From NCBI GenBank assembly GCA_963695415.1, contig CAVOGL010000005.1, positions 8,175 to 72,174 of the forward strand: a stretch of DNA of 64,000 nucleotides, given 5' to 3'. Positions 1,502-27,974 of the stretch are shown here, one piece after another. A program made the translations under genes and the position numbers. Position 1 is the stretch's first letter. Each line of letters opens with the position of its first letter. A model generated the notes under the pieces. That model searched no databases. It saw only the letters and a program-made list of their open reading frames with translations, and was not told the DNA's origin. This DNA is from an uncultured Chloroflexia bacterium (GTDB lineage Bacteria; Chloroflexota; Anaerolineae; Anaerolineales; UBA4823).

Positions 1502-2221
1502 TCAAGCAACCTTATCCAGGGCTGGTTTTTGATCCATTACGCCCCTGATCAAAAGCCACAAAGTAAGTGCAAATTCTGAAATAAACCCGAGCGGATAACT
1601 TATGTAGGTTATACCAACGAAGGTTTCTGCGATGAAGGCTGGGAATAGAAAGAACTGAAGGGTACTCGTTAACCAGACCACACAATGAACCATCAGGATT
1701 ACGCCCAAAATCTTGGGAATGAAGCCGGATTTGAAAACCAAATAACCCAGCGGAAAGAGCCATGCGCCAAAGAATATCTGAGCGATTCCCAGGAACCCAT
1801 ATTTGTATATATACAGAGATAACATTGCCAGGGCTTGCTGTTGATTAACCTGGAATACTTTCAAGTAGTCGGCACCGCTCAAAAGCAGTTGGCTGGCAAT
1901 TAGGAAAAGATCACTACCACACCATACCGCGACACCGGTCAGGTTCAATAACAGGAACAGCAAGGCGATGTCCTTATTTACCGGCTTCAACAGCACGAAC
2001 AACGCCCAGGCCGTCAAAACAAAAAACACAGCAGCAACCAGGTCACTCACTATGCCGACACGGAATTGCCAAGCAGATGCCATGATATTCCCGGCAGTTG
2101 TTGCAGCATCTCCCAATACAATAAGATTGGAACGACCCAGCACATCTGCGAAGATGGAAATTATGATGTAAATCAGATACAGGAACCCTGCAATTCTTGC
2201 GGTCTTATTGATTGAATTCAT
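1502..2221 (-). CDS. DUF4386 family membrane protein
   Basis: MNSINKTARIAGFLYLIYIIISIFADVLGRSNLIVLGDAATTAGNIMAS... is a typical DUF4386 N-terminus. AAAGGAGAT RBS upstream. Confidence 0.75.
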   Translation of the reverse strand: MNSINKTARIAGFLYLIYIIISIFADVLGRSNLIVLGDAATTAGNIMASAWQFRVGIVSDLVAAVFFVLTAWALFVLLKPVNKDIALLFLLLNLTGVAVWCGSDLFLIASQLLLSGADYLKVFQVNQQQALAMLSLYIYKYGFLGIAQIFFGAWLFPLGYLVFKSGFIPKILGVILMVHCVVWLTSTLQFFLFPAFIAETFVGITYISYPLGFISEFALTLWLLIRGVMDQKPALDKVA

Positions 2222-2660
2222 TTTTTATCTCCTTTGATATGAATAGCGCATAGCCCGACAAGGCAATGCCCACTAGGTATAAAACACTCTGAACAACATT
2301 CACCTGCCAGCGACCATGCCCAATATACGAGGAAGCTAAAAACGCCATCACTTCGATAAAGCCGATCACAAACACTAACATCCAGAAAGCCCATTTTTGA
2401 CCGGCGACCAGGCTTTTGCGGATTAGCGTCCAGGTCAGCACTGAGATCACTAGCGAGCAAGAGTTGTACAGGATCGTAAAAGCATTGAGCGATGCAATGG
2501 TCTTCGCACCAAGGGCGGCAATTTCAGCTTCTGAAACAGAAGCCACTTGCAAAATTGGGGAGTCCTTTTTGAGAATGATGACATAGCACAATATGATCAA
2601 GGCGAGTATAAAGTTGATGCCACACCATATTGAAAGAACGTTCGCACCTTTTTTTAGCAT
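2205..2660 (-). CDS. Small four-helix membrane protein, unknown family
   Basis: ORF 2205-2678. The ATG at 2660 (MLKKGANVLSIW...) sits 8 nt after AGGAG. Strongly hydrophobic. Confidence 0.6.
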   Translation of the reverse strand: MLKKGANVLSIWCGINFILALIILCYVIILKKDSPILQVASVSEAEIAALGAKTIASLNAFTILYNSCSLVISVLTWTLIRKSLVAGQKWAFWMLVFVIGFIEVMAFLASSYIGHGRWQVNVVQSVLYLVGIALSGYALFISKEIKNEFNQ

Positions 2661-2687
2661 TTTGGCTTCTCCTTTCATTTTCTCTCC

Positions 2688-3396
2688 CTAGCCCAAATCC
2701 ACTTTCGCAGACAGGGAAGCGATCGCAGATGGATTGAACCCTTTCACGATCAGCCATACCGCCAGAACCAATTCTTGTGGCAGCATTGGAGCAATCATAA
2801 GGACTTGTCCCGTACTGAAAAGGCGCGATGAGACCGATACTGACTAACGCACAGGATAGGATGCCCGTTATGCCGAAAATAAGACCCCAGACCGATAACC
2901 AACGAGGAACGAGTCTGGTTTTATAAAATATGACATAATAAAGCGTACACCCGATGGAAAAAGCCAGTAGCGAGCCAACATTACTCACCCAAGCCTTCCC
3001 TGCAAGTAATAATTCTCCAAGGGTTTGGAAATACGAAGGATCCGGAGCCCCAGCTTTTACGAATAGCTGGCTTAAGGTGATGATCGATAGCAGGATACAC
3101 ACAGAAACAAAACGCAACACTCCCTCCGAGATCCTGAAACCAACCGCTCCAAGCGCCAGAACCGGGCTGGAATGCTTTAGCACGGGATACAGCGAAATTG
3201 CAATCCCGGAAGCGCAAGCACCGCCGATGAATAAAAGAAAGGCTCCTGTTCCCACCAGGCCAGCATTTTCAGAAACACTGACCAGATAATTCGTGGAATT
3301 CACAGATCCCAGGAACAGGAAGCTCAGGACATCCACGCTCGTGTAAATGATGAAAAGGATTCCGGCACTTATTGCGAGTTTTCTAAAGTTGTTCAT
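2688..3396 (-). pseudogene. DUF4386-type membrane protein, frameshifted paralog of 4667-5401
   Basis: ORF 2524-3396 matches its paralog up to ...VSIGLIAPF and then becomes nonsense (SPYDCSNAATRIGSGG...). The adjacent frame gives GQVLMIAPMLPQELVLAVWLIVKGFNPSAIASLSAKVDLG with its stop at 2688-2690, aligning to LMAPLAIQEMVFAAWMILKGFNQ of the paralog. The shift lies near 2805-2825. Confidence 0.8.
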
Positions 3397-3432
3397 TTAA
3401 TATCTCCTTTTTCTAATTCGTTTGGTGGATTC

Positions 3433-4092
3433 TTAAGCGGTTTTGCCTGGATTGCTGCGCAACAGCACGATCCCCAGCCAAACGAACCAGATGACCTGGC
3501 TCAAGGCAAAAACTCCGACCAGGTCGATCAACCCCGGGAGAATGGTGATGATGCCCACCGCGCCAACCAACAAGCCGAGGATATTCAAGCTCTTGGGAAG
3601 CCCGCCCGTTCGAAGAGCGGCCAGGCTGACCAGCAGCGTCCAAAGTCCGCCCAGGATTTCTCCATTGCCGTTGCCCAACCCACTCGCCACGGTCTCGAAC
3701 CCCAACCAGGTCAAGGCAGCCTGGACCGGGTCTTTGGCATACAATGCAACAGCAGGGGCGATCCCGGCATTGGCGACCATGCCGCTGGCGATCAGCGAGC
3801 CAGCCCAGATGATCCCGATCACGGTTGCCACCTGCATGATCGCCGGTGCACCGGACTTTATGCGGTCGTATAACGCAAGCGAAAGGACGATCAGAAAAAC
3901 ACCAAAGAACACGTACATGAGCAGGTTGGTCGCAAATGTGACCATCTGCATTTCGACCAGCAGGGCAACCTTTTGGACCGGGTCAGTGATGCTGGGGTAG
4001 TCCAGAACTACAAGGAAGATGGTCATTCCGATCAGGTAGGCGGCTGCCAGGTACAAAGCGGCGAAACCGCCGAATTTTTGAAAATTTTTCAT
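3433..4092 (-). CDS. DUF4386-like polytopic membrane protein
   Basis: 219-aa ORF, MKNFQKFGGFAALYLAAAYLIGMTIFLVV..., six hydrophobic segments. AAAGGAGAT RBS. Confidence 0.6.
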   Translation of the reverse strand: MKNFQKFGGFAALYLAAAYLIGMTIFLVVLDYPSITDPVQKVALLVEMQMVTFATNLLMYVFFGVFLIVLSLALYDRIKSGAPAIMQVATVIGIIWAGSLIASGMVANAGIAPAVALYAKDPVQAALTWLGFETVASGLGNGNGEILGGLWTLLVSLAALRTGGLPKSLNILGLLVGAVGIITILPGLIDLVGVFALSQVIWFVWLGIVLLRSNPGKTA

Positions 4093-4120
4093 TATTTATC
4101 TCCTTTGATTGCTGAATAGG

Positions 4121-4555
4121 TCAGGCTTCGATGTTGCGCCACTGCCATGCAAACCAGATGATCAGCAGTAGACAGAGGGTCTCGACAACGGCGATGAACA
4201 GGTAGTGGGGAAATGACGCCATACCAACCCAGATATAGGCAATGGTGATAATACTCACCACGATATTGACCCAGCGATTGATGCCGTAATTCAATACACG
4301 GGACAGGATGATCATGGCAATGGCGAGATTGCCCATGATCGCGGCACCAAGCATCAGTTGAGGGATAGGGGTACCGGTGCTGACTGAGGTTTTCGCCACT
4401 TCATCTAACGCCCCAGGGATGAACAGCGAAAGGATATCTGCCTTCAACATATTTATCACGACTACGATCCATAATGTTGAGAGCAGGGCTTTCGCATCAA
4501 TTTTTCTTGTTGTCTTCCAGTTTGTCCCACCGGGTATTGCTTTGGTTGTATTCAT
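4121..4555 (-). CDS. DUF6326-like small membrane protein
   Basis: Start MNTTKAIPGG at 4555 after AAGGAG. LSTLWIVVVINMLKADILSLF resembles the DUF6326 signature. Confidence 0.6.
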   Translation of the reverse strand: MNTTKAIPGGTNWKTTRKIDAKALLSTLWIVVVINMLKADILSLFIPGALDEVAKTSVSTGTPIPQLMLGAAIMGNLAIAMIILSRVLNYGINRWVNIVVSIITIAYIWVGMASFPHYLFIAVVETLCLLLIIWFAWQWRNIEA

Positions 4556-4666
4556 TTCATTCTCCTTGTTGTTATTAATTTTGTCGCAGACAAGCCGCAA
4601 GTGTTTGTTTATGATTCGATCGGGGAAAGGGAGTGTCTTCAGACTTCCTCTCCCCTATATGCTGAT

Positions 4667-5401
4667 TTAAGCTGCGCTCAAAAGTTCATTTGTTTTTGTT
4701 TTAGCTGTCATGACAGCTATTTTCTGTTGGTTGAAACCCTTCAAGATCATCCAGGCTGCAAAGACCATTTCCTGGATGGCAAGCGGGGCCATTAAGAACC
4801 CCAGACCCGAGCTTAGAGATAGAACCTGCTGCGAGCCAAAAATGCCTTCTAAGTGGGCAATGAAGTACAACACTGCACCAACCAAACCCCAGCCAGACAG
4901 CCAGCGGGGAACCAGTCTGGTTTGATAGAAGAGAACATAGATCATCACCGCACCGATACTGAAAACCAAACCCAGTATCAGAGTGGACCAATCAGTTGTC
5001 GCAGTGAGCACGGAACCAAGTGCTTGACGGACGGATGCATCTGCTGCTCCGGTCATCCCATCGATCTGGCTGACAGTCAACATAAGGAACATAGCCAACA
5101 CCGTGATCAAATAACACACCATTTCTAATACCCCCCTGAACAGAACTGCTCCTAACGCCAGGACCTCATTGTGCTTTTTAAAGATCGGGTATAAAAGCAC
5201 CGGAATCATCGCCAGAGGAAATCCCATTACCAGGATAAGAAGTGTTCCGAGGATCCATTGGGTTTCATTTGCAGATACATTGAGTGGGTATGTCACTCCG
5301 GCTTTGATTGGGGCAGTCACAACCATGCTCAGGATGCCTGAGACTGTTCCAACGATGAAAAGAATTCCAACAGTCACGGCGGTTTTTCTGTATGTAATCA
5401 T
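4667..5401 (-). CDS. DUF4386-type membrane protein (intact paralog of 2688-3396)
   Basis: 244-aa ORF. Shares YYVIFYKTRLVPRWLSVWG / YVLFYQTRLVPRWLSGWG and the C-terminal WMILKGFN motif with the frameshifted copy. AAAGGAGAA RBS. Confidence 0.75.
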   Translation of the reverse strand: MITYRKTAVTVGILFIVGTVSGILSMVVTAPIKAGVTYPLNVSANETQWILGTLLILVMGFPLAMIPVLLYPIFKKHNEVLALGAVLFRGVLEMVCYLITVLAMFLMLTVSQIDGMTGAADASVRQALGSVLTATTDWSTLILGLVFSIGAVMIYVLFYQTRLVPRWLSGWGLVGAVLYFIAHLEGIFGSQQVLSLSSGLGFLMAPLAIQEMVFAAWMILKGFNQQKIAVMTAKTKTNELLSAA

Positions 5402-8710: not shown

Positions 8711-9167
8711 AGGGCAATTATTATTTTTAGATGCGAAAAGCCCAACTCGCGATCAGCGGATCGCGGAAAAACTTTCAGACAATCTTAAATATTCACCTGG
8801 TCATTATGATTATTGCAAAGCACTATCTTTATTGTGATCGAGTTATATCACAATTACCAGGGATTTGTATTCGACCTGGATTGCACGTACTGCCCTGGGC
8901 GATACCGCTCTCCCTCGGGGGATGTGGAGGCAGTGGCAGCCCTGCTGTAGCATCGAAAGCATATTTCCTTGATCGGGTATAGAAATGGGGAAGGAGGTGG
9001 AGCGACATTTTGCGTCCTGAAATGTGGACTTTTTAAGTTCCTGATTTGTGGACATTTTATTTTCTTCTTGACACTATCATCAGTACTATGGCCTCCTCCG
9101 ACTTCTCATCCGTCTTCTCTCTGAACTTCACCTTTCGGCTTATAACGTCAATTACACTGGGACTGGT

Positions 9168-9626
9168 CCAGCGACCAGGTGAGACCTCTCCTGTTCCATC
9201 GCCTACTTTCTCAACATCCTGCACTCCCTACACCGGAGGAGCCTGCCCAGAGCAAAGCGAAGGGTTCTTCGCGGCTGCTTCTCAGGGTCTTCACCGCTTC
9301 TGTTGCCTTCGCCATTCGTGACAGACCCGGCTCTCTCTTGCTCCCCTTTCGGGGCTAACATGTCGGTGCTGCCGTGCTTGCATAGCAAGACGCTTGCACA
9401 GCAAGACGCTTGCATAGCAAGACAATCACTTTATGTTACGGGCTGCTGTTTTACTCTCCTTTCTCAGGAGGTTACAACGCTTCGACATAGCCAGTCACCC
9501 GGCTGCATCGGTTGCCTCCTGAACGGTGTGAAGGATCACTGGCAGCCTGACCCTTACCAGGACTGGACTTCCTCCAGCAAGCAAACGGTGACTTTTCCAG
9601 GACACACCATGCGGGGTTGGGCGGCT
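9168..9626 (-). repeat. Copy 1 of a ~455-nt structured ORF-less repeat (candidate ncRNA or expanded attC)
   Basis: Roughly nine-tenths identical by eye to 16785-17238, with unrelated flanks. Starts with GCCCAAC 15 nt after the GNAT stop codon. Dense helices on the minus strand, and G-C/G-U exchanges between the copies. Confidence 0.6.
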
Positions 9627-9637
9627 GTTTGATATTT

Positions 9638-10222
9638 TCACTCCGATAACGAGTGCATTTGTAGCCATTCTTTCCTAAGCAGCGAAAACTGAATTTGATC
9701 ATTATATTGCCCATCCCGACAGTAATACTCGCGTAAAATACCTTCTCTTTGAAACCCTAGTTTTATCAGAACTCGCTGAGACCGATCATTTTCTATGTGT
9801 GTGGTAGCTTCAATACGATTCAAACCCATTTCAAAATATCCAAACCGAAACAATGCCCCCAATGCTTCCGGCATTATTCCTTGTCCCCAATAGTTGGGCC
9901 ATAAGTCATACCCTACTTCCGCCCGATGGTGTTGCTTATCCCATCGACAGTAACCGCATGTGCCAATCAATTCACCCTTTGTTTTGTATTCAATCCCCCA
10001 CCATTTGAAGTCGGGCATCTTTTCCGGGGTTTGCAGAGGGCTTAACATTTCTTTGGCCTGTTCTAGGCTCTTGAGAGGTTCTTCGTCACGCATGTAATAG
10101 GTAACTTGCGAGTCACCCCATTCTTTGAAAATGAATTCCGCATCATCCATTCTCAAAGCTCGAAGTACCAATCGCTTTGTTTCCATGCGCGGGTATGCCT
10201 GGTTTATTTCTTCAGTACTCAC
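9638..10222 (-). CDS. GNAT family N-acetyltransferase (RimJ/RimL-like)
   Basis: 194 aa. RLVLRALRMDDAEFIFKEW ... WGQGIMPEALGALFRFGYFEMGLNRIEATTHIENDRSQRVLIKLGFQREG is the acetyl-CoA-binding core. GTG start 5 nt after AAGGAG. Confidence 0.85.
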   Translation of the reverse strand: MSTEEINQAYPRMETKRLVLRALRMDDAEFIFKEWGDSQVTYYMRDEEPLKSLEQAKEMLSPLQTPEKMPDFKWWGIEYKTKGELIGTCGYCRWDKQHHRAEVGYDLWPNYWGQGIMPEALGALFRFGYFEMGLNRIEATTHIENDRSQRVLIKLGFQREGILREYYCRDGQYNDQIQFSLLRKEWLQMHSLSE

Positions 10223-16595: not shown

Positions 16596-16784
16596 TCTGT
16601 CTCCTGTGGTATTAGCTATGCTATTCCTTTACCAATATCTAGAGTTCCAAGTTTAATCGAGAAGACTGTCCGTTCAGCAGCCTAACATTTAATTTGATTG
16701 CGGTTCGATTAATTATATATACCTGTGTATATTCACACAGGATTCCGCCTTGCCGCTCATATCTGCCGTTACGCTGGCTCTGTA

Positions 16785-17238
16785 CCAGCGACCAGGTGAG
16801 ACCTCCCCTGTTCCATTGCCTGCTTTCACAACATCCTGCACTCCCTACACCGGAGAAGCCTGCCCAGAGCAAAGCGAAGGGTTCCTCATGGCTGCTTTTC
16901 AGGGTCTTCACCGCTTCTTTTGCCTTCGCCATGCGTGACAGACCCGGCTCTCTCTTGCTCCCCTTTCGGGGCTAACATGTCGGTGCTGCCGTGCTTGCGT
17001 GCAAGCGCTGGCAAGACGCTTGCACAGCAAGACAATCACTTTATGTTACGGGCTGCTGTTTTGCTCTCCTTTCTCAGGAGGTTACAACGCTTCGACATAG
17101 CCAGTCACCCGGCTGCATCGGTTGCCTCCTGAACGGTGTGTGAAAGATCCCTGGCAGCCTGGCCCTTACCAGGACTGAACTTGAACCAGCAAGCAGACGA
17201 TGACTTTTCCAGGACACACCATGCGGGGTTGGGCGGCT
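16785..17238 (-). repeat. Copy 2 of the ~455-nt structured ORF-less repeat
   Basis: Matches 9168-9626. GCCCAAC at 17228-17234 lies 20 nt after the stop at 17255. A GTTAGGC core lies downstream at 16680-16686. Confidence 0.6.
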
Positions 17239-17347
17239 TTTGTCCATAAAGTTATCAAGAACGATTAGCGATTTTCCTTAACACAGCGAGACCACCAAAA
17301 TATACAACTAAGCCTATTGCGATTCCAATACAAGATCCAGGATCGTT

Positions 17348-19790: not shown

Positions 19791-19818
19791 GTCTGAATAA
19801 AACCTTCTATCTCACTGC

Positions 19819-19959
19819 GCCCAACGCGTGATTTAGCGGATTGCATAACAGCTTATAAACGGTCCGTATAAATACCTATTCATTTTGGATATTATACGGC
19901 ACTCTATTTTTATCGGGAAAGAATTCCTCCTAATTTCTAACATGGAAGGACTGTTAGGC
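19819..19959 (-). repeat. Long attC-like repeat, family 1, copy A (occupies the attI position)
   Basis: Minus strand: GCCTAACAG ... CCGTATAA..TTATACGG ... CTGTTATGC then GTTGGGC, 29 nt before the ATG at 19790. The R'' end lies 15 nt from the intI stub. Confidence 0.55.
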
Positions 19960-19974
19960 TGCCAAACCCCCAAA

Positions 19975-20077
19975 ATGACTGGATCAAGTTCGTGAAATCC
20001 TGCGCATGAAGCACGATGCTTACCGCACCGAGCAGGCGTATATCGACTGGATCAAGCGCTACATCTTCTTCCATTAA
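19975..20077 (+). pseudogene. intI: Integron-integrase (IntI-type tyrosine recombinase) N-terminal remnant
   Basis: An ATG, one extra base, then LDQVREILRMKHDAYRTEQAYIDWIKRYIFFH followed by TAA. This matches the IntI N-terminal block (..R..HYS.RTEQAY..WI.R.I.FH). No catalytic domain follows. Confidence 0.65.
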
Positions 20078-20213: not shown

Positions 20214-21023
20214 TTGCACATCCCGCCTGCGGACCACTACCAGGGCTTTGTTTTCGACCTGGATGGCACGATCTACCTGGGCGACAGCGCCCTCCCGGGG
20301 GCAGTGCAGGCAGTGGCATCCTTACGGCAGGGCGGCAAGCGCGTCGTCTTCATCACCAACAAGCCGCTCTCCACACGACAGGATTATGCACGAAAACTCA
20401 CCCGATTGGGCATCCCCACCAACCAGGATGAGATCATCACCTCTGCATTTGTACTGGGCAGTCATTTAGCTAAGAAGCTGCCAGAGCTGAATTATTACCT
20501 GGTTGGGGAAGAAAATCTGGCGATGGAGCTGCGCGGGTACGGGTTGAATATCCTGCCTGAGTTCAGCGACCAGGACCCAAAGCATGTTCTGGAAGTGAAA
20601 GAGGTCGATGCTCTCATTGTTGCTTTCGACCGCACCCTGGATTACCGCAAGCTGAACACCGCCTACCAGGCGCTGGTCGGAGGCGCGCGGTTCTTCGCCA
20701 CCAACGCCGACAAGACCTGCCCCATGCCCGGCGGGGCAATCCCGGACGCCGGAGCTACGATCACCGCGCTGGAACACCTGACAGGGCGGCAGGTTGAGAT
20801 TTTGGGGGGAAAACCATCCCCTCTGATGATGCAGGTGGCGGCGGAAACCCTGCAGCTGTCCCCGGACCGCTGTCTGCTGGTGGGTGACCGTCTGGAGACA
20901 GACATGCGCATGGGTCAGAATGCCGGTTTTGCTACCGCGTTGGTGCTTACCGGAGTGACGCGCAGGGACGACCTGGAGGGATTTCACCCCACCGCCCAGT
21001 TACATTTTCTCCAACCTGTTTGA
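20214..21023 (+). CDS. HAD-IIA family hydrolase (NagD-like sugar phosphatase)
   Basis: FVFDLDGTIYLG, VFITNK, GKPSP, LLVGDRLETDMRMGQNAG. The last 14 codons look shifted, because the alternative frame gives DFTPPPSYIFSNLFELISS ending at 21039. Confidence 0.8.
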   Translation: MHIPPADHYQGFVFDLDGTIYLGDSALPGAVQAVASLRQGGKRVVFITNKPLSTRQDYARKLTRLGIPTNQDEIITSAFVLGSHLAKKLPELNYYLVGEENLAMELRGYGLNILPEFSDQDPKHVLEVKEVDALIVAFDRTLDYRKLNTAYQALVGGARFFATNADKTCPMPGGAIPDAGATITALEHLTGRQVEILGGKPSPLMMQVAAETLQLSPDRCLLVGDRLETDMRMGQNAGFATALVLTGVTRRDDLEGFHPTAQLHFLQPV

Positions 21024-22281: not shown

Positions 22282-23300
22282 ATGAAAACATTCGAAAAAT
22301 TAACGCTCCAGGGTCAGATCCGGCGGATGAGGTCACTCGCCTGGAAAGCGCTGGATTCATATCCTTTGAATATCAACAAAGTATCCTATCTAGGCTGGTA
22401 CACCAACCTGCTCTTTCGAATTTGGACCGGCGAAGGAAGGTCTCTGGTTCTGCGCGTCTGCGCACCAGGTTGGCGCAGCGACCTTGATCTGCAATCGGAG
22501 GCAGCGTGGCTTGAAGCGTTGGCAGCAGATGCTGATATCCGCGCCCCTCAACCAATCGCCGATAAATCAGGCAAATACCTTGTAGATGTGGAAGTCCCGG
22601 GAGTCCCAGGCAGCAGACGCTGCATGTTGATGAGCTGGATCCCCGGCGTTCCCCTGGGAAAACACTTAAATGAAGAAAACCTGGCATTGATGGGGGAATT
22701 GTTCGCCAGGTTACATGATTTCAGCGCTGGATTTCAACCAGATAACGACTTTACGGACCGTAAATTGGACAAAGTCCTCGCCCGCGATGAAGAAGACGTG
22801 CTTTTTAGCGAAACCTGTTTGACATGGCGCTTGATCCTACCCATCAACATCTTCTCCTGCAGGTCAGAGTGATCGTGGAACAGGCTTACGCCAATCTTTA
22901 CGCGCAGAAAGACGGCTTGCGCGTGATCCACCACGACCTGTGGCATGACAACATCCACATTTCCCGCGCCAGGCTGTATCCCCTGGACTTCGAGGACACT
23001 GCCTGGGGGTATCCGGTCCAGGACCTGGCAATGGCGCTGCAGGACCTGATGAATGATGTCGAACCACAGCTTTACGAACCTTATGCCGCCGCATTACGCC
23101 GCGGCTATGAAAGCCTGTCAACCTGGCCCGAAACCTACGAGGGTCAGATCGACATCTTCCGCGCAGGCAGAATGCTATGGGTGGCGAATTTCGTTGCCGG
23201 GTTCCAGAATGAACACCTGGATGGATTTCTCAGCAGGATCCAGCCCATGCTGGAATCATTTCTTGAGACAGGAAAATTACGGAAAATCAAACCAAACTGA
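22282..23300 (+). pseudogene. Aminoglycoside/choline-kinase-fold phosphotransferase (APH family), frameshifted
   Basis: ORF 22282-22872 ends in nonsense after ...DEEDVLFSE. The next frame gives NLFDMALDPTHQHLLLQVRVIVEQAY...VIHHDLWHDNI (Brenner motif) through ORF 22824-23300. The shift lies near 22805-22825. Confidence 0.75.
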
Positions 23301-25236: not shown

Positions 25237-26418
25237 TCACGGACGCGTCAGAAGCGGGAGATAAACCGGCTCCCAGGCGGCTTCGAAAGCGCCGATATCA
25301 CAGGCGCTGGAGTTAAAAGATGGTCGGGGAAAGCCTCTCTGGTCCACATTGGGACAGGAGATGGCATTTCCCCCGACGCCTGCAGCATTGAAGGCCGGGC
25401 TTCCAGCCATTAGTGCATGGGTCAGTGTATCTCCACCGTTATCGGCGAGTGGTCCGAGTTTTGGATCAGCTACCTGGAGACCGGCGCCGCAGGAAGAATC
25501 ACTGCTGATACTGTGGTGACCTGTCGCCAAAGCGACATTACAGGCAGTATTCCCTGCCCCCGCTGTGAGGATTGAATTATAAATCTCCAGGTTCCAGTTT
25601 ACGGATGTGTACACCGCCCAACCCGAAGTGGATTCGATGATATTGTTATTGGTGATCGTGGAGTAATGGATTTTTAAGTCACCGTTATTCCATTGAGAAA
25701 TCCCACCACCGTTATATAACGCAGTATTTCCACTGACGGTTACATTGACTAATGTAGCCGTATTTCCGTTGGTAAATCCCCCGCCGAACTCAGCAGTATT
25801 CCCTGAAATCAAAACCCGTTCCAGATGTACACTGCCAAATTGAGACTGGTAAATCCCACCTCCGTCACCACCAGTCTGGTTGCCGGTGAACTGCGAGTCC
25901 GCAGCGGTGAGGTTCCCAATGGTAAAAATCCCGCCACCCAGAACAAACCCATCCCCCAGATTATCGCGTACAGCAACATGGTCCAGATCCAAACTGATTT
26001 GTTCCCCTAAAACCTGGATCCCCGCGCCAAGATTGTTTTCAGGCAGTTTGCCGTGGCGGATGGTTAAGTCGGATACTGTGACCTTATATTCAGCATCGTT
26101 AAGCAAATCCAGAACACGGTCAATGCCTTCTTCAGTCGATGCCCCAGCCTGGATGATCGTTTGATCGATACCCTCACCTGCCAGGTTCAGGGACACAAGG
26201 ATGTCAAGGTCACCGGTGGCATTTTCATCCTCGTCCATGCCATCAATGGTGAGTTCGTAGACACCAACAGGCACCTGGATGGTGTAGGTGTTTGAAGGAT
26301 CTGCATTCGCCTTGCTGATCGCCCCGCGGAGGCTGCAGTCATTTTCGGAGGATGTACAAGCGCTTTTTGCTGGATCATCAACTGTGGTATCAACCTGTAT
26401 GATTAAAGTCTGCAGCAA
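25237..26418 (-). CDS. CSLREA-domain / choice-of-anchor-Q beta-helix protein (signal peptide apparently out of frame)
   Basis: ACTSSENDCSLRGAISKANADPSNTYTIQVPVGVYEL is the CSLREA motif; C-terminal NVDQRGFPRP...CDIGAFE. A signal-peptide-like LRLVSFLLLLTIILSSFSNSIAAD sits upstream in another frame (about 26420-26480). Confidence 0.7.
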   Translation of the reverse strand: MLQTLIIQVDTTVDDPAKSACTSSENDCSLRGAISKANADPSNTYTIQVPVGVYELTIDGMDEDENATGDLDILVSLNLAGEGIDQTIIQAGASTEEGIDRVLDLLNDAEYKVTVSDLTIRHGKLPENNLGAGIQVLGEQISLDLDHVAVRDNLGDGFVLGGGIFTIGNLTAADSQFTGNQTGGDGGGIYQSQFGSVHLERVLISGNTAEFGGGFTNGNTATLVNVTVSGNTALYNGGGISQWNNGDLKIHYSTITNNNIIESTSGWAVYTSVNWNLEIYNSILTAGAGNTACNVALATGHHSISSDSSCGAGLQVADPKLGPLADNGGDTLTHALMAGSPAFNAAGVGGNAISCPNVDQRGFPRPSFNSSACDIGAFEAAWEPVYLPLLTRP

Positions 26419-26552
26419 TCGAGTTTGAAAAAGATGAAAGGATTATGGTCAGGAGCAGGAGAAAACTGACTAAACGAAGCAAGAATTTTTGACTTAAAAT
26501 TTTTCCTTTTCTGGATTCAAAATTATTATTTCCGAAATCGGAGGTTGTTATC

Positions 26553-27827
26553 TCAATTACTTTTATTCTTAACTAAAGGAACGAAGATCCTCTCTCCAAC
26601 ATATTCGAATGCTCCGATGTCACACACAGCCACCTGATCCTGATCACCATCAAATGGACGAGGAAAACCTCGTTGATCCATACCTGGACACGCAATCGCA
26701 TTACCCCCATCCCCTGCCGCATCTATCGCCGGACTGCCGACTAACAAGGCGTGCGTGAGGGTAGCTCCACCGTTATCTTTTAGAATCCCAAGTTGGGGAT
26801 CTTCAACCAGGATCGTACTATCGCAAGTCGTATCACTGCCAATATTGTGATGACCAGCATCGATGAGTGATGTGCATGCCTTTTTCCCTTCTTCAGCCGT
26901 GATGATCGAGTTATAGATTTCTATTACCAGCGGGTCATGAATTGCCCACCCATTCGAATTAGCTGTGTTGACGTTATTTGTTATCGTGGAGTAGTGAATT
27001 TTAAGATCCGCATCATTCCACTGGCTGATCCCGCCCCCATTCGCAGTCGCAGTATTTCCACTGATGGTGGTGTTGATCAGAATTGCCAGATTGTTGTTTG
27101 CGAAACCACCGCCATATTCTGCCATATTTTCAGCAATCAGGCACCCATCCAGCAGGATATAATCAGAACCTCCCTGGTAAATCCCACCTCCTTCACCGGA
27201 TGTTACATTTCCGGTGAACTGGCAGTCTCTAGCTTCCAAATCACCGTTTGCGTACAACCCACCACCGTACGAATAACCTTCCCCCAGGTTGTCACGCAAT
27301 GCAACCCGGATGAGAGTCAGAGCACTGTTTGAATTGTATTGACGGATTCCGGCTCCAGTTTTACTATCTCCAATCTTCCCATGACGAACAGTCAAATCGG
27401 TGAATTCAACAGAGATCGTTGCGTCTCCTGAAATTTCGATTACGCGATCTATCCCAACGGATGCGGATGCTCCTGCCTGGATGATGGTCTGGTCCATGCC
27501 TTCGCCTTCCAGGTTGACGGTGGCGAGGATGTCGAGGTCTCCCGTAGCATTGTTGTCTTCCTCGGAACCAGCCAGGCTCAGGGTATAAATCCCGGCTGGG
27601 ATATGGATGGTGTAGGTGTTCCCAGCATCAGCGTTTGCCTTGCTGATCGCCCCGCGCAGGCTGCAGTCATTCGCTGCAGATGTACAAGCCTGGTATGCAG
27701 GATCGTTCGAGTCACTGGTGGTGTCAATAGTGATGGATGTATCAATAGCTCGAACATCGTTGACGACTAACAGAACACCAACAAGTAAGATAACTACAAA
27801 ACTGATTCGAACAGAAGTGCTTCTCAT
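26553..27827 (-). CDS. CSLREA-domain / choice-of-anchor-Q beta-helix protein, secreted
   Basis: Start MRSTSVRISFVVILLVGVLLVV at 27827 after AAGGAG. ACTSAANDCSLRGAISKANADAGNTYTIHIPAGIYTL. Paralog of 25237-26418. Confidence 0.8.
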   Translation of the reverse strand: MRSTSVRISFVVILLVGVLLVVNDVRAIDTSITIDTTSDSNDPAYQACTSAANDCSLRGAISKANADAGNTYTIHIPAGIYTLSLAGSEEDNNATGDLDILATVNLEGEGMDQTIIQAGASASVGIDRVIEISGDATISVEFTDLTVRHGKIGDSKTGAGIRQYNSNSALTLIRVALRDNLGEGYSYGGGLYANGDLEARDCQFTGNVTSGEGGGIYQGGSDYILLDGCLIAENMAEYGGGFANNNLAILINTTISGNTATANGGGISQWNDADLKIHYSTITNNVNTANSNGWAIHDPLVIEIYNSIITAEEGKKACTSLIDAGHHNIGSDTTCDSTILVEDPQLGILKDNGGATLTHALLVGSPAIDAAGDGGNAIACPGMDQRGFPRPFDGDQDQVAVCDIGAFEYVGERIFVPLVKNKSN

Positions 27828-27974
27828 GGGTAGCTCCTTTTTGATCGCTTTAAAGGAAACTGAATACGGGTATGATGCTGGATCGGACACTACCAATAAA
27901 TTATTCCCCAGCTAAAATTATACTGTAATTTTTCGATGAAATTTTCAACCAAACCGAATAACCAAAAAGAGATT

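Follow-up and report, generated by a model that had tools for sequence, protein, structure and literature searches.

We find that two related elements on the minus strand of a 64,000-nucleotide (nt) stretch of DNA from an uncultured Chloroflexia bacterium (contig CAVOGL010000005.1, positions 8,175 to 72,174; the whole stretch is hereafter called the window) are very probably dead, 3'-truncated relics of a mobile group II intron that homes to integron attC sites. Both relics appear to lie in split attC sites of a degenerate chromosomal integron. What a first-pass annotation had presented as a candidate conserved structured RNA thus becomes an explained relic. Such relics are ordinary. The lineage behind them is moderately novel: it homes to the top strand of attC sites, probably pairs its exon-binding site 1 (EBS1) with the attC L'' box, and is abundant in metagenome-assembled genomes (MAGs) of Chloroflexota and in environmental metagenomes.

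A repeat search and a pairwise alignment recover the two co-oriented, structured copies that had been annotated. The search returns them as ~510-nt repeats (9115-9629 and 16732-17241) made of three collinear blocks with 88-98% identity. In the minus-strand alignment, similarity is abrupt at AGCCGCCCAACCCCGCATG|GTGTGTCC and is lost gradually at the opposite end. Mapping the columns of an alignment with 36 homologues onto window coordinates places copy 1 at 9075-9607 and copy 2 at 16738-17219, in each case with an approximate 3' end. Copy 1 begins with GUGUG at 9607 and carries a complete domain 1 (D1, 9607-9185) and D2 (9184-9104), after which only 25-30 nt of D3 remain (9102 to ~9075); a BLAST match between this copy and a full-length relative, the L008 intron, ends at 9079. 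Copy 2 begins with GUGUG at 17219 and carries a complete D1 (17219-16802), followed by a D2 whose 3' strand is cut (16801 to ~16738). The truncation points therefore differ, falling in D3 in copy 1 and in D2 in copy 2. A perfect 7-bp palindrome with a 6-nt loop (CCTGTGT-ATATTC-ACACAGG, 16722-16741), read from the sequence, lies exactly at the junction where copy 2 parts from the intron family.

Over their shared intron part the copies are 89.6% identical, with 50 differing aligned positions (28 transitions and 22 transversions) and 9 indel columns. Both carry three insertions relative to most relatives, which makes them each other's closest relatives. One of them is lineage-specific and interrupts a peripheral loop of D1 in copy 1 (9377-9427, minus strand), where it forms three tandem 16-nt hairpin units (CUUGCUAUGCAAGCGU); copy 2 has a rearranged version of it at 16994-17037. 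Several relatives have unrelated insertions at the same loop.

The identity of the copies is given by their matches to group II introns. On the minus strand, copy 1 matches the Rfam family RF02003 (group-II-D1D4-4) at 9431-9580, scoring 50.5 bits where the gathering score is 49 (whole-window E = 3.3e-08), and this is the only gathering-level Rfam match of the entire window. Copy 2 matches the same family at 17041-17192, also on the minus strand, with 48.8 bits (E = 1.3e-09 in a 901-nt search). Neither copy has an RF02003 match on the plus strand. A pattern scan of genomes at one per species yielded 15 loci, nine of them homologous and those mostly in MAGs of Anaerolineae or other Chloroflexota, and a metagenome scan with a pattern for the intron 5' end added at least 120 stretches. 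At least 140 instances were collected overall, and at least ~135 further loci belong to the family (numbered here with the prefix L), the named organisms being mostly Chloroflexota (Anaerolineae) MAGs. A scan of viral contigs gave no matches.

Each copy aligns with the 5' portions of L008 and L001 over ~500 nt at 70-74% identity. In L008 this homologous region is followed by a 433-amino-acid (aa) open reading frame (ORF) for an intron-encoded protein (IEP) with RVT_1 and GIIM domains and no endonuclease (En) domain, and then by D5 (GAGCCGGAUGAGGGAAAACCUCAUGUCCGGUUC) and D6. L001 is an ORF-less version of ~800 nt that likewise has D5 and D6. Matches to RF00029 (domains 5 and 6) are present in both of these introns, with a D5 of the form GAGCCG...CGGUUC. 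The family D5 has an AGC triad, and D1-D3 span ~500 nt. Comparison of occupied with empty sites fixes the intron ends as GUGUG...CCCUAC. Among solved structures, the family IEP is nearest to group IIC reverse transcriptases (RTs; 7uim, 2.7e-65; 6ar1, 1.5e-62), with IIB and IIA IEPs at ~1e-48.

The window elements are fragments, because D5 and D6 are lacking there but present in L001, L008, and other relatives. No RF00029 match was obtained around either copy even at E ≤ 10, and no D5-like motif occurs on either strand of the whole window. A tblastn search of the window with the L008 IEP gave nothing below E = 1, and tblastn together with manual reading of frames revealed no IEP remnant downstream of the copies. 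No further intron pieces were found within the window.

The fold of the family was established from an alignment (A2) of both copies and the 36 homologues, with the RNAalifold consensus computed from the 36 non-window sequences only. D1 occupies columns 1-640, D2 columns 641-723, and D3 begins at column 725. The consensus has 124 pairs, with 97.6% of cells paired and compensatory double changes in 53 of the pairs. On none of five measures of the fold does any of 500 shuffles do as well, and sliding the pairing partners reduces pairing to 35-46%. In the 36 homologues the consensus helices contain 645 G·U cells compared with 28 A·C cells, and canonical cells amount to 98.1% on the intron-sense strand versus 84.3% on the complement. 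The family-level fold is thus clearly real and strand-specific, and the molecule is an RNA, which in the window lies on the minus strand. This agrees with the first-pass annotation in its choice of the folded strand, and the structural alignment with homologues that it proposed favors the intron-sense strand across the family. The free-energy comparison with shuffled controls that it also proposed does not discriminate the strands: z-scores for the minimum free energy (MFE) on minus and plus are -1.0 and -0.8 for copy 1, and -3.65 and -2.9 for copy 2.

The argument by which the annotation had arrived at the minus strand, namely that differences between the copies preserve pairing only on that strand, fails. 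Among 15 differing pairs, seven are canonical in both copies on the minus strand only, five on the plus strand only, and three on neither, and a 7:5 split is the kind of even division expected from neutral transitions. One of the three examples given for the argument, the CUGG hairpin (helix 4), holds, with a change of G-C to G·U. The proposed pairing of CCUGG with UCAGG is not a covariation-supported helix; CCUGG pairs instead with a downstream CCAGG (helix 5), and the U/C difference falls in the loop of that helix. The proposed pairing of AGUCAYC with GGUGACU conflicts with two helices, the covarying hairpin helix 10 with its GUGA loop and helix 3, in which the C of copy 1 (AGUCACC) gives a C·A mismatch, so that the change breaks a minus-strand pair. 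We also considered AGUCAYC:GGUGACU as a tertiary, alpha-like contact and rejected it, since two helices with covariation support occupy part of the same sequence and covariation there is not consistent in the rest of the family. The apparent G-U signal is a product of the general G·U richness of intron-derived sequence and of the choice of examples.

Both copies carry signs of decay. Of 108 pairs, 10 are non-canonical in copy 1 and 9 in copy 2, with six A·C pairs in each, whereas IEP-bearing full-length copies have 0-3 and other, likely degenerate members of the alignment have up to 8. At the 143 columns that are invariant in all 36 relatives, there are 8 changes in copy 1 and 7 in copy 2. Two clear A·C mismatches are common to the copies, as are three more non-canonical pairs, which however adjoin a window-specific insertion where the alignment register is doubtful; another four to five helix breaks occur in one copy only. 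About 91% of the D1 consensus pairs remain intact. The minus-strand fold is ancestral, and there is no sign of its maintenance in copies 1 and 2. Where a functional folded strand co-oriented with the cassettes had been proposed, a structured, co-oriented RNA (intron D1 plus parts of D2 and D3) does stand at the boundary of cassette and attC, but it does not look functional at present: D5, D6, and the IEP are lacking, and 9-10 pairs are broken.

The copies occupy a defined position within attC-like sequence. As had been annotated, each copy lies a few nucleotides past the stop codon of a minus-strand ORF, copy 1 after a GNAT acetyltransferase gene and copy 2 after small ORFs below a TPR gene, and each is followed by a GTTRRRY core, at 8746-8740 for copy 1 (~880 nt further downstream) and at 16686-16680 for copy 2 (~550 nt). 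Copy 1 is preceded by the 5' half of the GNAT cassette attC (9608-9622, minus strand), comprising R'' GCCCAAC (9622-9616), a CCC spacer, and L'' GCATG (9612-9608), which forms the 5' exon and intron-binding site 1 (IBS1). The attC interrupted by copy 2 (17220-17234, minus strand) has the same arrangement, with R'' GCCCAAC (17234-17228), CCC, and L'' GCATG (17224-17220). Downstream of copy 1, the minus-strand R' core GTTGGGC (8740-8746) is the exact complement of R'' and is likely the 3' end of the split attC; downstream of copy 2, the R' core GTTAGGC (16680-16686, minus strand) marks the start of the next cassette, another GNAT gene (16595-16080).

This arrangement is general to the family. 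In the window and in almost all other instances, GUGYG is preceded by RYYYAAC and 8-9 nt ending in ...GCGTG, ...CGCTG, or ...GCATG. Among the matches listed, a strict RYYYAAC lies 8-11 nt upstream in 77 of 129 distinct 5' flanks, compared with 1.3% of control windows, and RYYYAAC plus 8-9 nt precedes 73 of the 129 distinct copies. Empty sites in L001, L008, and L009 have the form GSCTAAC-AAA-GCGTG|CAC...(~110 nt)...CGCAAASC-GTTRRSC, measure ~135 nt, and recur between short, co-oriented ORFs. Their R and L boxes are complementary by eye, and the layout appears to be the R''-L''...L'-R' of integron attC sites. Identification of the repeats as attC rests on the R and L boxes, their position, and the neighboring integrase gene (intI). 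In the window, as in L001, L006, L008, L043, L107, and L114, the intron runs in the direction of the cassette ORFs upstream of it and against that of intI, and therefore lies in the attC top strand.

Base pairing between the intron and its target offers an explanation for this precision. The EBS1 hairpin in D1 (columns 389-406; loop UGUCACGCAU) bears CACGC, which is complementary to the commonest L'', GCGUG. Where L'' varies, the loop covaries: CAUGCC faces GGCAUG (L074), CAUGC faces GCAUG (L110), CACGCG faces CGCGUG (L027), and CAGCGA faces UCGCUG (L081) and, via wobble pairing, UCGUUG (L105 and L049). The pairing involves 5-6 nt, and the EBS1/IBS1 complementarity exceeds that of 4999 of 5000 shuffles of the exon-loop assignments. 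The corresponding loops in the window are UGUCACGAAU in copy 1 (9314-9323, minus strand), which departs from the family consensus, and UGUCACGCAU in copy 2 (16931-16940, minus strand). About 40 nt upstream, a conserved GUUAG is complementary to R'' CUAAC, and three introns that instead have GUUGG or GUUGA all occupy CCAAC sites. These three covarying cases are a weak hint of an EBS2-IBS2 pairing between GUUAG and R'' across the 3-nt spacer. In copy 1 the candidate EBS2 is GUUAGCC (9353-9359, minus strand), which itself has the form GTTRRRY.

The window from 1 to 20 kb appears to be a decayed chromosomal integron. Its ORFs are co-oriented, and R'' RYYYAAC and R' GTTRRRY boxes flank the repeats between them. 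Those near the copies have mixed functions, including two GNATs, an alcohol dehydrogenase, a TPR protein, and unknowns; the GNAT ORF whose attC carries copy 1 (9638-10222, minus strand) matches Pfam Acetyltransf_3 with E = 5.6e-31. In L001, a pair of short ORFs resembles a toxin-antitoxin pair. An N-terminal remnant of an integron integrase of ~45 codons (LDQVREILRMKHDAYRTEQAYIDWIKRYIFFH) with in-frame stops occupies 19946-20074 of the plus strand and points away from the cassettes of the minus-strand array. It was matched by tblastn with 47% identity over 47 aa (E = 1.6e-05) to an approximate IntI1 query, and this evidence is supportive only. The intron-bearing arrays of L006, L043, L064, L107, and L114 likewise have IntI-like ORFs running divergently from them, and in several loci these are longer than the window remnant.

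Three further observations concern the array itself. A HAD hydrolase gene (20214-21023) occupies the place expected for the rest of intI. A 45-nt stretch at 8850-8894 is 82% identical to the start of that gene (20233-20277) and lies within the ~320 nt of junk that separate copy 1 from its R' core, which suggests rearrangement. The segment 12738-12896 is a 160-nt duplicate, 88% identical, of the region adjoining the intI remnant (19817-19974), with a promoter-like AAAAATAGAGTGCCGTATAAT and an R' core, and resembles a further attI/promoter region placed mid-array.

Taken together, these features suggest a course of events. The family inserts on the cassette-sense (top) strand immediately after L'', 8-9 nt 3' of R'' (RYYYAAC), with the target probably chosen by base pairing of the EBS1 loop with L'' and perhaps of the D1 GUUAG motif with R''. 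Because the IEP lacks an En domain, priming would presumably come from replication intermediates, in line with primer use by En-minus group II introns in general (summarized in PMC4424553). Two attC sites of the minus-strand array, part of a degenerate chromosomal integron with an intI remnant, may have been invaded, or else a single invaded site was later duplicated. Deletions would then have taken away the rest of each intron from D2 or D3 on, and with it the IEP gene, D5, D6, and some of each attC. The group II fragments usually discussed are 5'-truncated, as expected of incomplete reverse transcription, whereas copies 1 and 2 retain their 5' junction precisely but lack the 3' part, a pattern that speaks for deletion at a later time. 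The remainder, presumably unable to splice or move, would have drifted neutrally since then while keeping much of the ancestral D1 fold, which accounts for its look of a conserved minus-strand structured RNA. In this respect the copies resemble degenerate bacterial group II introns in general, which are immobile and decaying. Some 0.5-0.9 kb of cotranscribed junk would now lie between the R''/L'' half of each attC and the L'/R' half, and the cassettes concerned are probably immobilized.

Shortened forms also occur elsewhere in the family. In an nhmmer profile search, 38 copies reach D4 and ~76 stop earlier, at positions scattered from 28 to 480 despite more sequence beyond, among the matches listed. 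(Extents of truncated copies are taken from nhmmer, which replaced unreliable BLAST-based extents.) The prevalence of stubs is confounded, since the two search patterns depend on the presence of the intron 5' end and since metagenome assemblies break at multicopy full-length introns; for these reasons the apparent excess of 3'-truncated stubs is not interpretable. One stub, of 182 nt in L009, is fused to the intact 3' part of its attC with L'/R'. Truncation mediated by the integrase at an internal GTTAGCC was considered and rejected: the one junction checked by eye, in L009, does not fall at G|TT and still has ~90 nt of attC beyond it, and the end points of truncation are scattered.

A second class comprises ORF-less mini-introns of ~700-800 nt, which share a similar ORF deletion that keeps approximately the first 29-30 IEP codons (L001, 873-1665; L027/L090; L103; L115). 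L026/L120 and L128 look related to this set. Where enough sequence is present, D5 lies at ~690-700. The mini-introns occupy different attC sites, which suggests that they were mobilized in trans. ORF-less mobile group II derivatives are rare in bacteria (PMC4424553), and to judge from these sequences they appear repeatedly in this attC intron family.

Several observations weigh against interpreting the copies as neutral relics of an attC-homing intron. The inter-cassette repeats of ~135 nt (130-140 nt) give no clean attC hairpin by MFE, with z-scores from -1.7 to +0.6 at six sites, and neither a purpose-built attC finder nor single-stranded DNA folds recovered clean attC hairpins. In both window copies, only 3-4 of 6 positions match between EBS1 and the adjoining 5' exon (GCAUG). 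The RF02003 score of copy 2 lies 0.2 bits under the gathering score, and the intI remnant was detected with the approximate query described above. Paired columns differ between the copies slightly less often than unpaired ones (17 of 216 versus 33 of 254, or 7.9% versus 13%; Fisher p = 0.10), so that weak residual constraint is possible. Moreover, the reference structure was built from the 36 other sequences, which fit it better by construction. Finally, the window covers only 64 kb, and a 3' intron half or a trans-acting IEP could lie elsewhere in the genome.

We considered three other explanations for the copies. It is possible in principle that stubs are kept as DNA: a self-folding D1 stub would sit in the variable terminal part of attC, the bottom strand would still join R''/L'' with L'/R', and stub-bearing cassettes would stay mobile and spread. 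The ~76 5' stubs that remain within attC-like repeats at other loci favor this idea, as do the L009 stub with its intact attC 3' part and the exact complementarity between R'' of copy 1 and the downstream R'. However, neither R' in the window has beside it an L' complementary to GCATG, the ~320 nt after copy 1 are unrelated junk with a gene fragment in it, and intI in the window is a pseudogene. The plus (bottom) strand, with five pairs preserved against seven, shows no preferential preservation, and the stub excess is confounded by the 5'-anchored patterns and assembly breaks already noted. We regard this explanation as unlikely. The first-pass annotation had likewise offered a single-stranded recombination substrate as an alternative to RNA, for which we find no direct support; the fold is that of intron RNA and not of an attC hairpin.

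Slightly less likely still is a role of the copies as functional RNA: they would form the 5' half of a split group II intron that splices in trans, or else a D1 scaffold RNA that has been domesticated and is transcribed together with the cassettes. Split group II introns do exist in organelles (PMC4424553), and D1 is complete in both copies with most of its consensus pairs intact. Yet known split introns break mostly in D4, whereas the copies break in D2 and D3, at points that differ between them, and no 3' half (D4-D6) lies within the 64-kb window. Invariant columns are hit and helices broken at a neutral-looking rate, and EBS1 fits the local exon poorly. The remaining explanation, that this is a structured noncoding RNA or repeat unrelated to group II introns and that the Rfam match is a borderline false positive, draws on the scores at threshold (50.5 and 48.8 versus 49). 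It is refuted by the close relatives, which score 78-86 bits and continue into an RT/maturase ORF and canonical D5/D6, and by homology that spans ~500 nt. Truncated relics of an attC-homing intron thus remain the preferred interpretation.

The parent family has both likenesses to and differences from known introns of integrons. Group IIC ribozymes have a compact D1, lack an EBS2, and recognize a very short IBS1 together with an upstream stem-loop. The ribozyme of the present family is larger and has D1-D3 of ~500 nt, an AGC triad in D5, an EBS1 of 5-6 nt that covaries with L'', and possibly an EBS2; the first three of these features argue against assignment to IIC, and the proximity of its IEP to IIC RTs among solved structures points the other way. 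Like group IIC-attC introns of the S.ma.I2 lineage, it has an En-less IEP of ~430 aa and inserts specifically into attC near the R'' end, and in both groups truncated copies occur in cassette arrays (PMC3001079, PMC7923331, PMC4424553). IIC-attC introns, however, insert into the attC bottom strand, antisense to the cassettes (PMC3001079), whereas this family lies in the top strand, co-oriented with the cassette ORFs and directly after L'', an orientation clearly different from that of IIC-attC introns. One group IIC intron in an attC top strand, from Enterobacter cloacae, has been described, as far as the citation of Rodriguez-Martinez 2012 in PMC7923331 conveys.

A 2015 review gives attC insertion for class C only (PMC4424553), and a 2021 survey describes isolated IIB introns (CL1 and class E) in cassette orientation (PMC7923331). 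The latter, UHB.I2 (IIB1/CL1) and the class E fragments H.ha.F1 and H.ha.F2, share with this family the cassette orientation, the association with attC, and En-less IEPs, and truncated fragments in clusters of attC sites lacking integron-integrases (CALINs) are found among them, as here (PMC7923331). UHB.I2 is located immediately past an attC, the H.ha fragments lack their 5' part, and these are isolated cases without a conserved flank. The present family, by comparison, occupies ~130 distinct sites at one precise position within attC, with covariation of EBS1 and L'', and its window fragments are 3'-truncated. Outside integrons, plasmid group II introns of Leptospira (annotated ltrA) encode an IEP 63% identical to that of the family over 96% of its length, with a homologous ribozyme, D5, and a 3' end of ...GACCCUAC. 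In the single Leptospira locus inspected (L136; Leptospira interrogans plasmid NZ_CP098371.1, 31121-34765), neither a GUGYG 5' end nor a RYYYAAC flank was seen in the stretch read. Among the papers searched, none joins group II introns, integrons, and Chloroflexi.

A broader reading, which we advance tentatively and hold as somewhat less probable than not, joins these features. The parent family may be an undescribed group II lineage that colonized integrons independently of IIC-attC introns, homing to the top strand exactly after L'' and reading both boxes by RNA-DNA pairing (EBS1 with L'', GUUAG with R''). Its members would be co-transcribed with the cassettes and spliceable, its ORF-less mini-introns would spread in trans, and its 5' stubs might persist because they are tolerated in a usable attC or help to rebuild one. 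What is known of group II introns at attC sites comes almost entirely from the IIC-attC lineage of clinical integrons, which lies antisense in the bottom strand. Confirmation would widen the known target rules of group II introns to include the sense strand and a fixed position after L''. Sense-oriented, spliceable attC introns would also be relevant to how cassettes acquire attC sites, and would suit models of cassette genesis that have group II introns link genes with attC sites.

Three other features of the window lie apart from the intron copies. Four consecutive paralogous DUF4386 genes stand beside a DUF4395 gene on the minus strand (1502-5401). On the plus strand, an APH-family phosphotransferase at 22282-23300 is spread over two overlapping ORFs (22282-22872 and 22824-23300) and is probably frameshifted. 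Adjacent minus-strand ORFs of 393 and 447 aa (25237-27896) have no Pfam match, and their DNA segments 26138-26376 and 27466-27704 are 72-78% identical, so that the two look like a tandem pair of paralogues.

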